NCBI GenBank assembly: GCA_025356575.1
Contig: JANXSP010000095.1
Location: forward strand, 1,503 to 65,502
Reading direction: 5' to 3'
Length of the DNA stretch: 64,000 bases
Source: Novosphingobium sp.
GTDB lineage: Bacteria > Pseudomonadota > Alphaproteobacteria > Sphingomonadales > Sphingomonadaceae
Numbering within the stretch: position 1 is the first letter of the stretch; each line of letters opens with the position of its first letter. Made by a program: the position numbers and the translations under genes. The notes under the pieces were generated by a model that had not been told where the DNA came from, ran no database searches, and saw nothing but the letters and a program-made list of their open reading frames with translations. Of this stretch, positions 3,431 through 10,323 are shown piece by piece.

Positions 3431-4960
3431 TTAACCGATCCCCGCCGCGGCGAGCAGCGCGGCGGTGCTGGCGTCGAACTTGCTCCCGCCCGCCTCGATC
3501 GCGTTGGCGATCTCCTTGCCCAGTTCGACCCCCCACTGATCGAAAGGGTTGATCTCCATCAACACTGCATTGGCGAACGTGCGGTGTTCGTGGAACGCGA
3601 TCAGCGCGCCCAACGTCGCCGGATTTAGTTCGTCGATCAGCATGGTTGCCGAGGGCCGGTCTCCGGGATAGGCGCGCGCCGGGTCGCTGCTTGCCTTGCC
3701 CGCCATCAACGCCGCGCCCTGGGCAAAGCAGTTCGAAAGCAGGATCCGGTGGTGCGCTTCGTCGAGCACGTCGCCGGGCGCGATCGCGGCGATGAAATCG
3801 ACCGGCACGATGTTGGTCCCCTGGTGGAGCAGCTGAAACACCGCATGCTGGGCATCGGTGCCGACCCCGCCCCAGGTTATCGGTGCCGTCGGCCCGTGGA
3901 CCGCCCCGCCATCTGCGGTCACCGACTTGCCGTTCGATTCCATCTCAAGCTGCTGCAGATAGAACGGCAACAGCCGCAGCCGCTCGTCATAGGCGAAGCA
4001 GGCCCGCGTCTGGCAGCCGCGCAGACGGGAATAGAACTGATCCGCAAACGCTGCGAGCAGCGGCAGGTTGGCCGGTCCCTCCTCGTCGAGGAAGTGGCGG
4101 TCCATTGCCGCCGCGCCGTCGAGAAGTTCGGCGAATTGCTCCCAGCCCAGCGCCAGCGCAATCGGGAACCCGATCGACGACCACAACGAATAGCGCCCCC
4201 CCACGCTCGCCGGGAACGGCAACACGCGGGTCTCGTCGACCCCCCACTCGACTGCCTTTTCGGGTGCGGCGGTCAACGCGACGACCCGCCCGAAACCGTC
4301 CTCGATCCCGTTGTCACCGAGCCATGCCAGCGCACTGGCGGCGTTGGTCATCGTCTCCATCGTGGTGAATGTCTTGGAGGCGACCGCGATCATCGTCGTC
4401 GCCGGATCGCAGGCAGCGAACGCTTCCTCGAGCGCGCAACCATCGATGTTCGAAACGACGTGAACCGCCACCCGCGAGTCCTCCCGGGCCAGGGCATCGA
4501 TCGCCAGTTTGGGCCCGAGCGCGGACCCGCCGATGCCGATGTGGATCAGGTGCTTGACCTCGCCCAGCACGCCGTCGTGGATCGCCTCGACCAGCCCGCG
4601 CATGCGGGTGTGTAGCGCGGCCGCTTCCTCGACGCTGGTGTCCTTGCCAAGCCCGCGCTGGGCCGTGTGCTCGGCGGCCCGATGCTCACTGGGATTGACG
4701 ATCTCGCCTGCGAACAGCGCAGCGCGCCGCGCCGCGAACTGCGTAGAGCGGGCGAGCCGCTCGAACCCTGCGACATGCGCCGCGTCGAGGTGGGTTTTCG
4801 ACCAGTCGAACCGGATCGTTCCGCCCGGCAGATCGAGCGCGGTGCTGAACCGCTGCAGTCGTCCGGGATCGCCGAACAGCGCGCTCAATGTCGGCCGGGG
4901 GAGCGCCGCGAGTTCGGCCCACAGCGCGGTTGGGAGATCGCCGGGAAGGTCGGTCATCGG
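3431..4960 (-). CDS. pgi: glucose-6-phosphate isomerase
   Basis: Track ORF 3431..5038. IGIGGSALGP and other PGI motifs. Likely start is MTDLPGDL at 4960. Confidence 0.9.
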   Translation of the reverse strand, partial: PMTDLPGDLPTALWAELAALPRPTLSALFGDPGRLQRFSTALDLPGGTIRFDWSKTHLDAAHVAGFERLARSTQFAARRAALFAGEIVNPSEHRAAEHTAQRGLGKDTSVEEAAALHTRMRGLVEAIHDGVLGEVKHLIHIGIGGSALGPKLAIDALAREDSRVAVHVVSNIDGCALEEAFAACDPATTMIAVASKTFTTMETMTNAASALAWLGDNGIEDGFGRVVALTAAPEKAVEWGVDETRVLPFPASVGGRYSLWSSIGFPIALALGWEQFAELLDGAAAMDRHFLDEEGPANLPLLAAFADQFYSRLRGCQTRACFAYDERLRLLPFYLQQLEMESNGKSVTADGGAVHGPTAPITWGGVGTDAQHAVFQLLHQGTNIVPVDFIAAIAPGDVLDEAHHRILLSNCFAQGAALMAGKASSDPARAYPGDRPSATMLIDELNPATLGALIAFHEHRTFANAVLMEINPFDQWGVELGKEIANAIEAGGSKFDASTAALLAAAGIG

Positions 4961-5063
4961 GTCGCTTTCGATCAGGTCCCGCGTTCTATGACGCGTTGCC
5001 GTACCTGCGCCAAGTGTGCTGCAACCGCGAAGCGACAAACGCTTTGCGGCAAACCGGCCAATC

Positions 5064-5085
5064 GTGTATTACTAGAGCAATACAC
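5064..5085. promoter_or_regulatory. perfect 7-bp inverted repeat GTGTATT-N8-AATACAC in the pgi/lepB divergent spacer (candidate operator)
   Basis: Read directly from the sequence. It is the only AT-rich palindrome in this GC-rich spacer. Confidence 0.25.
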
Positions 5086-5117
5086 CAAGCGACTTGACGC
5101 CGCCCGCCGCGGCCAAC

Positions 5118-5987
5118 ATGGACCAGCCGATGAACCAGACGACCCTCAACGCCGACGCCACTGGCGGTCAGCCGATCGAACCAGCTTCGCTGACCTCGGC
5201 CAAGCCGGAAAAGAAGGAAGACAGCTTCTGGGTCTTTTTGCTCAAGCTGGTCGCGGTCGTCGCGATCTTCCGCAGCTTTTTCTTCTCGCCGTTCAACATC
5301 CCCTCGGAATCGATGCTGCCGGGGCTGGAAAACGGCGATTACCTGCTCGCGGCAAAATGGCCCTACGGCTACTCGAGCTACTCGTTGCCGTTCGGTTTGC
5401 CGCTGATCCCCGGGCGCATCCTCGCCCATCAACCCAAGCGCGGCGACGTGGTGATCTTCAAGGCGCCGCCCGCCAACGATTCCGATTACATCAAGCGCGT
5501 CATCGGCCTTCCGGGCGACCAGATCCAGATGATCGGCGGAGTGCTCCAGATCAACGGCAAGCCCGTTCCCAAGGTCCGGGTCGAGGATCTGGTCCAGCAG
5601 GTTTCGCCCAATACCGATTGCTTCGGCGGCCAATTCATGGTGACCGAGACGAGCGGCGCGAAGACCTGTCACTACCCTCGCTTCCGCGAAACCTTGCCCG
5701 AGGGCAAAAGCTATTACGTGCTCGATTTCGGGGCGCGGGAGCAGGATAACACCGCGCCGGTGGTGGTCCCGCAAGGCGCGCTGTTCCTGATGGGCGATAA
5801 CCGCGACAACTCGATGGACAGCCGCTTTCCCGCAGTCGAAGGCGGCGGGGTCGGGCTCGTCCCGCAGGCCAACCTGGTCGGCCGCGCCACCGTGATGATG
5901 TTCTCGACCGACGGTTCCTCGGCCTGGCTAAAGCCGTGGACCTGGTTCACCGCTGCGCGCTGGAACCGCATCGGGACGGCCCTTTGA
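5118..5987 (+). CDS. lepB: signal peptidase I
   Basis: [10 protein letters not shown] (catalytic Ser box) and [12 protein letters not shown] box. Track ORF starts at TTG 5094; the ATG at 5118 is more likely. Confidence 0.9.
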
Positions 5988-6679
5988 GCGCATCCGCCGC
6001 GACTTCGGCGACCCTGTCTGCCGCGACGCGCGCGTTCGTCGGGTCGCTTGCGGGCGAAGCGATCGGCAGCGACGAACCCTACATCGATGCGCTGACCCAC
6101 GGGAGCATGGGCGAGCCGCGCAATTACGAACGGCTCGAGTTTCTCGGCGACCGCGTGCTCGGCCTGGTCATCGCCGAATGGCTGTTCGAGAAGGAAGGCG
6201 ATGCCGAGGGCAAGCTCTCCCAGCGGCTCAACGCGCTGGTCAGCCGCGAGATGTGCGCCGAAATCGCGCGCGACATCGGCCTGGCGGCGCACATGCGGCT
6301 GGGCAAGCAGGCGCGCGACGACGGCGGTGCGGACAGCGACAACATTCTTGGCGATGTCATGGAAGCGTTGATCGGCGCGCGCTTCGTCAGCGCCGGGTTC
6401 GGCCCGGCGCGCGCCATGATCCGCGAACTGTGGCGCCACGCGGTCGCAGGCAAGGCCGGAAAATCCAAGCACCCCAAATCGGCGCTGCAGGAATGGGCTG
6501 CGGGCAACAAGCGCAAGGTGCCCGAATACCAGGTCACCGGGAGATCGGGCCCCGACCACGCGGCCAGCTTCACCGTGACGGTCGCGATCCCCGGAGTGGG
6601 CGAGGCGGCAGCCGGCGGCGCGAGCAAGCAAGACGCCGAGACCGCCGCCGCGGCCGAGTTTTTGAGGCGGTTCGGATGA
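5984..6679 (+). CDS. rnc: ribonuclease III
   Basis: [12 protein letters not shown] RNase III signature plus a C-terminal dsRBD. Track ORF starts at GTG 5936. TTG 5984 overlaps the lepB stop and gives a typical 231 aa. Confidence 0.88.
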
Positions 6680-7580
6680 CGCGAAGATGCGGTCTCGTTG
6701 CGGTGCTCGGCGCGCCGAATGCGGGCAAATCGACGCTCGTCAACGCGCTCGTCGGCCAGAAAGTGGCGATCGTCAGCGCCAAGGCGCAAACCACCCGCGC
6801 CCGGCTCATGGGTATCGCGCTGGCCACAGAAGGTGCGGACGAAGTCCAGATCATCCTCGCGGACACTCCCGGCATTTTCGCGCCCAAGCGCCGGCTCGAC
6901 CGGGCGATGTCGCCGCCGCCTGGGAAGGCGCGAGCGATGCTGACGCGCTGATGCTGCTGGTCGATACCGTCAAGCAGCGCCGCCACGAACTCGTGCCGAT
7001 CCTCGAGGCTTTGAAAGACCGCAAGGAGCGCAAGCTGCTCGTGCTCAACAAGGTCGATGCCGGGGCCAAGGAGCCATTGCTCAAGCTGGCCGAGGAATTC
7101 GTTGCCGCTGCCGGGTTCGACGAGGTGTTCTTTGTCTCTGCGCTGACCGGTGACGGGGTCCCGGAACTCAAGGCGCGCCTCGCCGAGCTGATGCCCGAAG
7201 GCGAATGGCATTATCCCGAGGACCAGGTCTCCGACGCCAGCGAGCGGCTTCTGGCCGCAGAGATCACCCGCGAACAGCTCTACCGCCAGCTTCACGACGA
7301 ACTGCCCTACGATGCCGCCGTCCGGCCCGAAAGCTACACCCAGCGCGCCGACGGCTCGGTCGAAGTACGCCAGCAGATCGTCATCGCGCGGGCCAGCCAG
7401 AAGCCCATCGTCCTGGGCAAGCAGGGCAGCCGGATCAAGGCGATCGGCGAAGCCGCGCGGATGGAACTTTCGGCCATCCTCGGCGTCCCGGTCCATCTGT
7501 TCCTGCACCTCAAGGTCGACGAGAAGTGGGAAGACAGCCGCGAAATCTACGACGAAATCGGGCTCGACTGGGTGAAGTGA
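6676..7580 (+). pseudogene. era: GTPase Era, interrupted by an apparent 1-nt deletion near 6909 (or an assembly indel)
   Basis: G1 [10 protein letters not shown]2 TTR and G3 DTPG lie in the frame of ORF 6178..6951, ending ...RRLDRAM. G4 NKVD and the KH domain lie in the frame of ORF 6687..7580, beginning [12 protein letters not shown]. The two frames share nt 6909. Confidence 0.85.
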
Positions 7581-7594
7581 CGGTCCGCGCCAAG

Positions 7595-7774
7595 CTAGCG
7601 CAACTTCGCGATCCCGATGCTATCGGCCTTGGCGCGGTCTTTGGTCGATTCCTCGCTTCGGTTCAGCGCCTTGGCAATTTCCTTTAGTCCCTTGCCCTTG
7701 CCGGCGAGCGTCTTGAGCTTCTGTAGCTCTTCGGGCTTCCACGGCTGCCGGTGGCGGGTGAAGACTTCGCTCAT
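7595..7774 (-). CDS. small hypothetical protein (59 aa), Myb/SANT- or GcrA-N-terminal-like HTH pattern
   Basis: Own translation: MSEVFTRHRQPWKPEELQKLKTLAGKGKGLKEIAKALNRSEESTKDRAKADSIGIAKLR. The ATG overlaps the topA TGA as ATGA. About 80% G/C at third codon positions, by my own count. It is below the track length cutoff. Confidence 0.55.
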   Translation of the reverse strand: MSEVFTRHRQPWKPEELQKLKTLAGKGKGLKEIAKALNRSEESTKDRAKADSIGIAKLR

Positions 7775-10323
7775 TTGGCCGCGGCTTTCTTGGGCGCTGC
7801 CTTCTTCTTGGCCGGAGCTTTCTTCTTCGCGGGGGCGCGCTTCTTGCCCTTGGCCGGGCCCTTGGCGGCGCGCTCGTCGATCAGCGTCACGGCCTCCTCG
7901 GCGGTCAGTTCCTCGGGCTTCTTGTCGCGCGGGAGCGTGGCGTTGGTCGTACCGTCGGTGACATAAGGGCCATAGCGCCCGGCCATCAGCTTCATCTCGC
8001 CGCCCGAGGTGGGGTGCGCGCCGAACACCGCGATCGGTTCAGCTGCCGCGCGGGCGCCGCGCCCGCCCCCGGCAGCCGCTTCGGCCAGCTTGGTCACCGC
8101 GCTGTTCATCCCGGTCTCGAACACTTCGGCGGTCGCACGCAGTTTTGCGTACTTGCCAGAATGCGCGAGGTACGGCCCGTAACGTCCTATACTGGCAGTG
8201 ATCGGTTCGCCGCTTTCGGGATGCGCGCCGATCGTGCGCGGCAGGCTGAGCAGTTTGATCGCCCATTCCAGATCGAGCTCGGGAATGTCCTTGGGGATGG
8301 AGGAGCGCTTGGCCTCCTTGCCCTCTCCCATCTCTATATACGGGCCGAACCGGCCGACCTTGCGCGTGATCGGCAGGTCGGTTTCGGGATGGATCCCGAT
8401 CGCGCCGTCGCCGGCATCGGCCTCGCCCCCGGGCTGTGCAAATTTGCGCGTGTATTTGCACTCGGGGTAGTTCGAGCACGCGACGAATGCGCCGAACCGG
8501 CCGCCGCGCAGCGCCAGTTCGCCGCCTTCGCGCCCTTCGGCGACACAGGCCGGGCACTTGCGCGGATCCGATCCGTCCTCCTTGGGCGGGAACAGATAAT
8601 CGGCCAGAAACAGGTCGAGCGCCTTGGTGATGTCGGACGGCTTCTGCTCCATCACCTCGTCGGATTTGGGCTTGAAATCCTTCCAGAACGCGGCGAGCAC
8701 TTCCTTCCACGCGGCGCGGCCGCCGGAGACCTCATCGAGCTCGTCTTCCATCCCCGCGGTGAACTCGTAGGCCACATAACGTTCGAAAAACCGCTCGAGA
8801 AACGCGGTCAGCAACCGCCCGCTTTCCTCTGCGAAGAAACGGTTTTTCTCGGTCCGCACATAGTTTCGGTCCTTGAGGACCTGGAGCGTCGCGGCATAGG
8901 TCGAAGGCCGTCCGATGCCGAGTTCCTCGAGTCGCTTGACCAGGCTGGCCTCCGAATAGCGCGGCGGCGGTTGGGTGAAGTGCTGTGCGGCATCGACCGC
9001 GCGCTTGGCCGGGGCATCGCCCTTGACCATCGCCGGAAGAAGCGCGCTGTCTTCGTCGTCCCCGCTCGCCCCGACGTCGGTGCTTTCCTCGTAAACCGCC
9101 AGGAATCCTGGGAACTTGATGACTTGACCGGTGGCGCGCAGCTCGTGCTGGCCGGTGCCGTCCAACAAGCTGACGCTGGTCCGCTCGATGAGTGCCGAGG
9201 CCATCTGACTGGCCATCGCGCGCTTGTAGATCAGATCGTAGAGCCGCGCTTCGTCGCCGTTGCTGAACTTGTCCCTGGTGAACTCGGTCGGGCGGATTGC
9301 TTCGTGGGCTTCCTGCGCGTTCTTCGCTTTGGTTTCATAAATGCGTGGTTTGTCAGGGAGATAGTGGCCGTTGTAACGGTCGGTTATCGCCGCGCGCGCG
9401 GCCGAGATGGCGCTGTGATCCATCTGCACGCCATCGGTCCGCATATAAGTGATCGCGCCCGCCTCGTACAAGTTCTGGGCCACGCGCATCGTGTGGCTCG
9501 CCGAGAAGCCGAGCTTGCGCGCCGCCTCCTGCTGGAGCGTCGAGGTCGTGAACGGCGGATAGGGATTGCGCCGCTGCGGCTTGACCTCGACATCCTCGAC
9601 CCGGAACACCGCGCCTTCGACCGCAGCCTTGGCGCGCATCGCGGTGCCTTCTTCGCCCAGGCTCAGCCGGTCGATCTTGTCGCCCGCAAACCGGACCAGC
9701 CGCGCCGCAAACGCGGTTCCGCCCTGCTCCAGCGTCGCGACAACCGACCAGTACTCCTGCGGCTTGAACACCTCGATCTCGCGCTCGCGCTGGACGATCA
9801 GGCGCAGCGCGACCGACTGCACCCGCCCCGCCGATTTGGCTCCGGGCAGCTTGCGCCACAGCACCGGCGAGAGCGTGAACCCGAACAGATAGTCGAGCGC
9901 GCGCCGGGCGAGGTAGGCATCGATCAGATCATGATCGAGATCGCGCGGCGCTTTCATGGCGTCGGTCACCGCCTGCTTGGTGATCGCGTTGAAGGTGACC
10001 CGCTCAACCTCCTTGGGCAGCGCCTTGCGCTTGGCGAGCAGTTCGCGGACGTGCCACGATATCGCCTCGCCTTCGCGGTCGGGATCGGTCGCGAGGATGA
10101 GCCGGTCGGCGGTCTTGGCGGCATCGGTGATCGCTTTGACGCGGCTCGCCTTGTCGCCGTACATTTCCCAGTCCATCGCAAAGTCGTCGTCGGGGCGGAC
10201 CGATCCGTCCTTGGGCGGAAGATCGCGGATGTGACCGTAACTGGCGAGGACCTTGTAGTCCTTGCCGAGGTAACCTTCGATGGTCTTGGCCTTGGCGGGC
10301 GATTCGACGATGACGAGTTGCAT
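7771..10323 (-). CDS. topA: DNA topoisomerase I (type IA) with a Lys/Ala-rich C-terminal tail
   Basis: MQLVIVESPAKAKTIE Toprim start, zinc-ribbon CPxC repeats, 850 aa. Confidence 0.95.
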   Translation of the reverse strand: MQLVIVESPAKAKTIEGYLGKDYKVLASYGHIRDLPPKDGSVRPDDDFAMDWEMYGDKASRVKAITDAAKTADRLILATDPDREGEAISWHVRELLAKRKALPKEVERVTFNAITKQAVTDAMKAPRDLDHDLIDAYLARRALDYLFGFTLSPVLWRKLPGAKSAGRVQSVALRLIVQREREIEVFKPQEYWSVVATLEQGGTAFAARLVRFAGDKIDRLSLGEEGTAMRAKAAVEGAVFRVEDVEVKPQRRNPYPPFTTSTLQQEAARKLGFSASHTMRVAQNLYEAGAITYMRTDGVQMDHSAISAARAAITDRYNGHYLPDKPRIYETKAKNAQEAHEAIRPTEFTRDKFSNGDEARLYDLIYKRAMASQMASALIERTSVSLLDGTGQHELRATGQVIKFPGFLAVYEESTDVGASGDDEDSALLPAMVKGDAPAKRAVDAAQHFTQPPPRYSEASLVKRLEELGIGRPSTYAATLQVLKDRNYVRTEKNRFFAEESGRLLTAFLERFFERYVAYEFTAGMEDELDEVSGGRAAWKEVLAAFWKDFKPKSDEVMEQKPSDITKALDLFLADYLFPPKEDGSDPRKCPACVAEGREGGELALRGGRFGAFVACSNYPECKYTRKFAQPGGEADAGDGAIGIHPETDLPITRKVGRFGPYIEMGEGKEAKRSSIPKDIPELDLEWAIKLLSLPRTIGAHPESGEPITASIGRYGPYLAHSGKYAKLRATAEVFETGMNSAVTKLAEAAAGGGRGARAAAEPIAVFGAHPTSGGEMKLMAGRYGPYVTDGTTNATLPRDKKPEELTAEEAVTLIDERAAKGPAKGKKRAPAKKKAPAKKKAAPKKAAAK

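Follow-up and report, generated by a model that had tools for sequence, protein, structure and literature searches.

The gene for the GTPase Era is read in two different frames in the Novosphingobium sp. DNA examined here, which raises the question of whether this bacterium has truly lost, split or recoded the protein, or whether a single letter is missing from its draft genome. An earlier note, made from the letters of this DNA, had located a single-nucleotide frameshift in era and had offered three readings of it: an assembly or sequencing indel, a very recent inactivating mutation, and a split or recoded gene. The window, that is, the whole stretch of 64,000 nucleotides that was analysed, belongs to a draft genome (G000) of 178 contigs and 2,620,105 bases (2.62 Mb) that is 99.53% complete and 1.15% contaminated. 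Our results place the frameshift at the site claimed, and point toward the first reading as the probable one, in which the loss of the G would be due to an error of one base, or to a non-representative variant, that became fixed in a low-coverage metagenome assembly.

The break in era and its surroundings

No uninterrupted era frame of about 300 codons is present in the window; the frame changes at 6909 (Table 1). The last in-frame codon of the first piece is the ATG at 6907-6909 (...RLDRAM), and the codons read at the site are GCG ATG TCG CCG CCG CCT GGG. The translations and the alignment to NF000908, the NCBIfam equivalog profile of Era with 291 positions, agree on the place of the break. 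The first piece covers profile positions 2-73 and the second covers 74-290; the break is a clean junction, at which no residue is lost except through the shift. In agreement with the earlier note, the N-terminus of Era lies in the frame of the open reading frame 6178..6951, with its stop at 6949-6951, and the remainder of the protein (NKVD...DWVK) lies in the frame of the open reading frame 6687..7580, starting with the codon at 6909-6911 and stopping at 7578-7580. Against the NF000908 cut-off of 237 bits, the first piece scores 108.7 bits and the second 208.5 bits. With the profile TIGR00436 (cut-off 116.25), the second piece alone passes at 133.4 bits, and the first reaches 78.1.

The motifs GAPNAGKS and DTPG are found in the first piece and NKVD in the second, and we take these to be, respectively, the G1 P-loop, the G3 DxxG and the G4 NKxD motifs of the N-terminal G domain of Era. 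The SAL and KH-domain region is carried by the second frame. Particularly, the C-terminal KH domain (PF07650) is precomputed for P0003, a protein of 301 residues from ENA metagenome assemblies (2 contigs) whose sequence agrees with the window's second piece at all 223 residues (100%). When compared to the first piece, P0003 is identical at 77 of 78 residues, the difference being R4K. If the indel is set aside, no sign of decay is seen in the window's era, R4K, a conservative change, being the sole difference in 301 residues. A working gene would read ...CGG GCG ATG GTC GCC GCC GCC TGG... at the site, giving an Era of 301 residues.

Table 1. Features of the window around era, with their coordinates and strand.
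Feature	Coordinates	Strand	Remarks
pgi	3431-5038	minus	
lepB (signal peptidase I)	5094..5987	plus	upstream of rnc; NCBIfam TIGR02227, 145 bits vs cut-off 47
rnc (ribonuclease III)	5936..6679, true start uncertain	plus	NCBIfam TIGR02191, 189.1 bits vs cut-off 166.25
era, both frames	6676-7580	plus	
era, first frame	6676..6951	plus	residues 1-78 genuine Era, then 13 off-frame residues; TGA at 6949-6951
era, second frame	6909..7580	plus	-1 relative to the first frame; V79 to K301, 223 residues; stop at 7578-7580
lesion	6907..6911	plus	ATGTC in the window vs ATGGTC/ATGGTG in all 19 relatives; one G short
59-codon open reading frame	7595-7774	minus	between era and topA; no known family
topA	7771-10323	minus	

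The stop codon of rnc, the TGA at 6677-6679, overlaps the ATG of era at 6676-6678 (ATGA). Most likely, the organism's era is an ordinary single-copy gene in the usual lepB-rnc-era arrangement. Further downstream, the protein of the 59-codon open reading frame reads MSEVFTRHRQPWKPEELQKLKTL..., and the end of this reading frame overlaps the start of topA by 4 bases; an NCBIfam search with it gave no match at E 1e-10 or better.

Relatives, copy number and frameshift background

A DNA search found era in 23 of 30 relatives, including all 18 same-genus genomes, the best matches being only 79% identical. The earlier note had proposed a comparison with the era of related bacteria, and this comparison bears its reading of the site out: in a codon alignment from DTPG onward, made with the era frames of 19 relative loci (L010-L028), every locus has the G that the window misses. 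The site reads GCN ATG GTC in 16 of them and ATG GTG in three; next come a variable codon and GCN GCN/GTG TGG. Counted from nine residues before the P-loop, one open era frame of 295-305 codons is found in 18 of the 19. The era of the same-genus genome G002 (L026, contig C94) was considered as a frameshift and rejected, the interruption being a run of 37 N, that is, a scaffold gap or a masked stretch. The two pieces of that gene lie in different frames and correspond to residues 4-202 and 221-301 of P0003.

These alignments bear on the idea that the shift is real and tolerated, either by means of a -1 ribosomal shift near 6909-6925 or through pieces of 91 and 209 residues that reassemble, an idea that we consider very improbable. 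A shift of -1 is indeed the direction that restores the era frame. In addition, the TGA that closes the first frame shares a base with an ATG that is in frame with the second (TGATG, 6949-6953), an arrangement that fits termination and reinitiation, and a product of 209 residues (MLLVD..., from the ATG at 6951) is annotated on the window's contig. However, 6800-6951 contains no X_XXY_YYZ heptamer in any frame, in line with the earlier note, which had seen no slippery heptanucleotide at the junction, and era contains no homopolymer of five or more. The shift occurs in none of the 19 relatives and the near-identical copies described below are uninterrupted, which argues against a conserved recoding site. 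As to the TGATG, the intact gene uses these letters to encode Leu-Met, and the overlap is therefore probably incidental. A two-piece Era obtained by such a restart would consist of a 91-residue piece with G1-G3 and a 209-residue piece with G4, G5 and the KH domain. It would have its G domain cut between DTPG and NKVD and would be missing residues 79-92, which are conserved in all 19 relatives, and its reassembly into a working protein is hardly to be expected. With no slippery site, no shift in the relatives and intact near-identical copies, the split or recoded gene that the earlier note had listed is disfavoured.

The copy number of era was assessed by a back-up search of all 178 contigs with the TIGR00436 profile (cut-off 116.25), which gave 11 matches. 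Two of these, at 74.8 and 132 bits, are the neighbouring era pieces of the window's contig. The other nine score at most 59.6 bits, below the cut-off, and cover G-domain positions only; they were taken for other GTPases. A second era copy elsewhere in the genome, which the earlier note had suggested looking for, is therefore not found above this cut-off. According to excerpts of the review PMC10582724, Era is essential in E. coli, nearly all non-reduced bacteria retain it, the exceptions being a few genome-reduced phyla, and mutations in its G motifs are lethal or severe; the earlier note had likewise described Era as essential or near-essential. Since Era is essential in E. coli and kept by most bacteria, and since this genome has no second copy, a fixed null era allele is unlikely a priori.

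The frameshift background of the assembly was evaluated with 37 stretches (~722 kb) of a same-genus genome (G013), which yielded 3606 six-frame open reading frames of at least 100 codons. A GC3 filter dropped 3121 of the 3606 and kept 485 coding-like reading frames, which were compared by tblastn with the window's genome. In this sample, which covers less than a third of the genome, 347 of the 485 had matches and 221 of them qualified as orthologue-like, with an identity of 55% or more over at least half of the query. Seven adjacent different-frame pairs were flagged; a smaller earlier run had flagged four, of which one (C135) was not flagged again. Among the approximately 221 orthologue comparisons, era was the only clean frameshift, with a subject gap of 0 and a query gap of 1. 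The other seven flagged pairs were rejected as off-frame upstream extensions of stop-to-stop reading frames, as spurious reading frames, or as the effect of a hybrid kinase query that matched neighbouring kinase and regulator genes. There is thus no frameshift background. The assembly is not of the noisy long-read kind, and the event in era stands alone. The fact that era is the only frameshift among 221 comparisons counts against an artefact, as there is no background of such errors. In itself, an isolated event of this kind is compatible with an assembly error that is rare and local as well as with a rare real mutation, and does not separate the two.

The tblastn alignment of a pyruvate-kinase-like gene (G000:C21:2591-4117) includes a stop (KGY*VAK). 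As a lesion, this stop was rejected, given that it lies in a poorly matching stretch ahead of the conserved part and upstream of the likely true start.

Intact copies in protein collections and metagenome contigs

P0003 scores 332.9 bits against the NF000908 cut-off of 237. Its 90% cluster includes two further intact proteins, P0123 and P0124, each of 301 residues, each one residue away from P0003 and each from 2 contigs, the longest of 128,561 bases. All three read RAMVAAAW across the junction, and the window's two pieces match them at 299 or 300 of 301 residues. The earlier note had calculated that one extra G would restore an Era of about 301 residues, and these near-identical intact copies have exactly that length. 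The same cluster also contains P0125, a protein of 209 residues that starts with MLLVD and comes from a contig of 66,188 bases; as G000 has a contig of this length, P0125 is taken to be the gene call made on the contig of the window itself. The 91-residue product forms a singleton cluster and, by exact look-up in about 15 billion proteins, comes from the same 66,188-base contig only; the 297-residue product of the open reading frame 6687..7580 is absent from about 15 billion proteins by exact look-up. Judging from these sequences, the intact allele is that of other assemblies of near-identical populations, and the deleted allele is private to the window's assembly. In practice, the deposited genome has two short coding sequences, of 91 and 209 residues, in place of a single era. 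Split records of this kind would mislead surveys of gene content or essentiality, and both pieces are already in protein collections.

A search for sequencing runs that hold the stretch listed 21 runs, from 16 studies; 20 of them contain some of it and 5 contain at least half of its sampled words. The listed runs are sediment, rock, soil or unlabelled metagenomes, with the exception of one marginal organism-labelled row (share 0.04), and the genome is therefore metagenome-derived. No RNA run is among the 21 listed holders. For four of the runs (X1, X2, X5 and X6), Logan contigs, whose assembly is independent of the window's, were aligned to 6300-7700 (1401 bases). Word depths around era are only about 4-14 in these four runs, and such contigs drop rare variants and give no allele counts or frequencies. 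The sole indel reported over the 1401 bases is a G put in behind 6908. In this regard, the earlier note had held that an additional G at 6909/6910 would mean an intact era; such a G is present at the level of assembled contigs in X2 and X5.

In X2, the inserted G is carried by a 400-base piece (contig depth 5.75) on 6891-7289 with two other letters, which has 18 letters to the left of the G as compared with the 31 per side required to count as bridging. In X5, it is carried by one contig of depth 16.7, which is absent from the listed pieces and may derive from a relative at least 90% alike. Furthermore, the left-hand contig of X2 extends 9 letters beyond 6909 that misfit the window, and the right-hand contigs of X5 and X6 have 7 letters ahead of 6909 that misfit it as well. 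The misfitting letters in these three runs are those expected from the ATGG reading. The window's own form across 6909 is found in none of the listed contigs of X1, X2, X5 and X6.

The best holder, X1, shows neither form across the site: a 612-base contig ends exactly at 6909, the next one starts exactly at 6909, and nothing crosses. Contigs that stop and begin on one and the same G would be expected of a de Bruijn graph with both T and G after ATG, and would also be expected if the crossing words had been removed as too rare, so that the pattern may be read in favour of an artefact as well as of a real deletion. To the left of 6909, the X1 contig (6300-6909) is identical to the window over all 610 bases; to the right, the window differs from the X1 contigs at 6941, 7302, 7496 and one further place. 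This match on one side and mismatch on the other is a weak hint of a contig stitched from different strains at 6909.

At the strain level, single-base differences between the window and the near-identical contigs of the four runs are seen at 6686, 6699, 6941, 7022-7023, 7302 and 7496. The change 6686 G>A, which accounts for R4K in Era, is present in X2, in X5 and in all three intact ENA proteins, and the window's T at 6941 is common only to X2. The letter combination of the window equals that of no single aligned run.

Searches with short patterns were carried out as well. A pattern of 40 bases that admitted both forms by means of one optional base gave 0 matches in JGI metagenome contigs, and a 24-mer of the deleted form gave 0 matches in species-representative genomes. 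The sole match of this 24-mer in metagenome contigs (L029) was rejected as chance, having no similarity to 5001-9000 of the window.

Error, private mutation and known systems

The observations on X1 also bear on a real event, namely a very recent private mutation, fixed in the strain or present as a sizeable population allele, that would inactivate or cripple era. We regard such a mutation as possible but less likely than an error. X1 contains the window's left haplotype (G at 6686, T at 6699), on the contig covering 6300-6909 with 0 other letters. If the break of that contig on the G reflects a de Bruijn graph with T and G continuations, as we infer, the deleted form may exist in X1. Moreover, assemblers normally keep the better-covered path and a path due purely to error should be rare, the assembly has no general excess of frameshifts, and further damage to era is not to be expected if the event is very recent. 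Set against this, Era is, in excerpts of PMC10582724, essential in E. coli and nearly always retained by non-reduced bacteria, and it has no second gene in this genome. The GTPase domain is itself interrupted by the break, which lies between DTPG and NKVD, and neither piece is a whole domain. In addition, none of the listed contigs of the four runs spans the site in the deleted form, the truncated product comes from no other assembly among about 15 billion proteins, and near-identical populations are intact.

Together, these findings favour an error, or a non-representative variant, of the assembly, given the extra G in contigs of X2 and X5 and the intact, near-identical Era of other assemblies. 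The assembly or sequencing indel put forward in the earlier note gains weight from the same two observations. The assembly graphs of several samples break at this site, and as a mechanism we propose that the error may have arisen at a graph junction and that the source reads would also carry the G. Against this explanation, the change of GG to G is no classic context of short-read error, and X1, the best holder of the stretch, shows neither form across the site. If the deletion were true, it would represent a natural case in which a GTPase considered essential is lost or split, with relevance to research on ribosome assembly; the evidence points the other way, and the split era is probably ordinary, with nothing new biologically.

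With respect to the Era family (NF000908/TIGR00436), the window's gene is alike in that its pieces jointly cover positions 2-290 of 291, carry G1, G3, G4 and the KH domain, and follow lepB and rnc, and is unlike it in being laid out in two frames, with one G missing at 6909/6910. Programmed ribosomal frameshifting is known from genes such as dnaX (-1) and prfB (+1). The window's era resembles these in that one gene occupies two overlapping frames and in that a -1 shift would restore the product; unlike them, it has no slippery site, its shift is conserved in 0 of 19 relatives, and near-identical copies are intact.

A further parallel is that of spurious pseudogenes. According to excerpts of PMC11017572 (Cooley and Wright, BMC Genomics 2024), many of the 'pseudogenes' that bacterial assemblies show through a frameshift or a stop are errors of assembly, and their occurrence depends on the assembler, the platform and the coverage. 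In line with the cases treated in those excerpts, the window's era is a conserved gene shifted by a single base in a draft of low coverage, and independent assemblies of near-identical sequence contradict the shift. The excerpts deal with isolate genomes and per-genome counts of pseudogenes, whereas the case described here is that of one gene in a metagenome-derived genome, judged from independent contigs and protein records.
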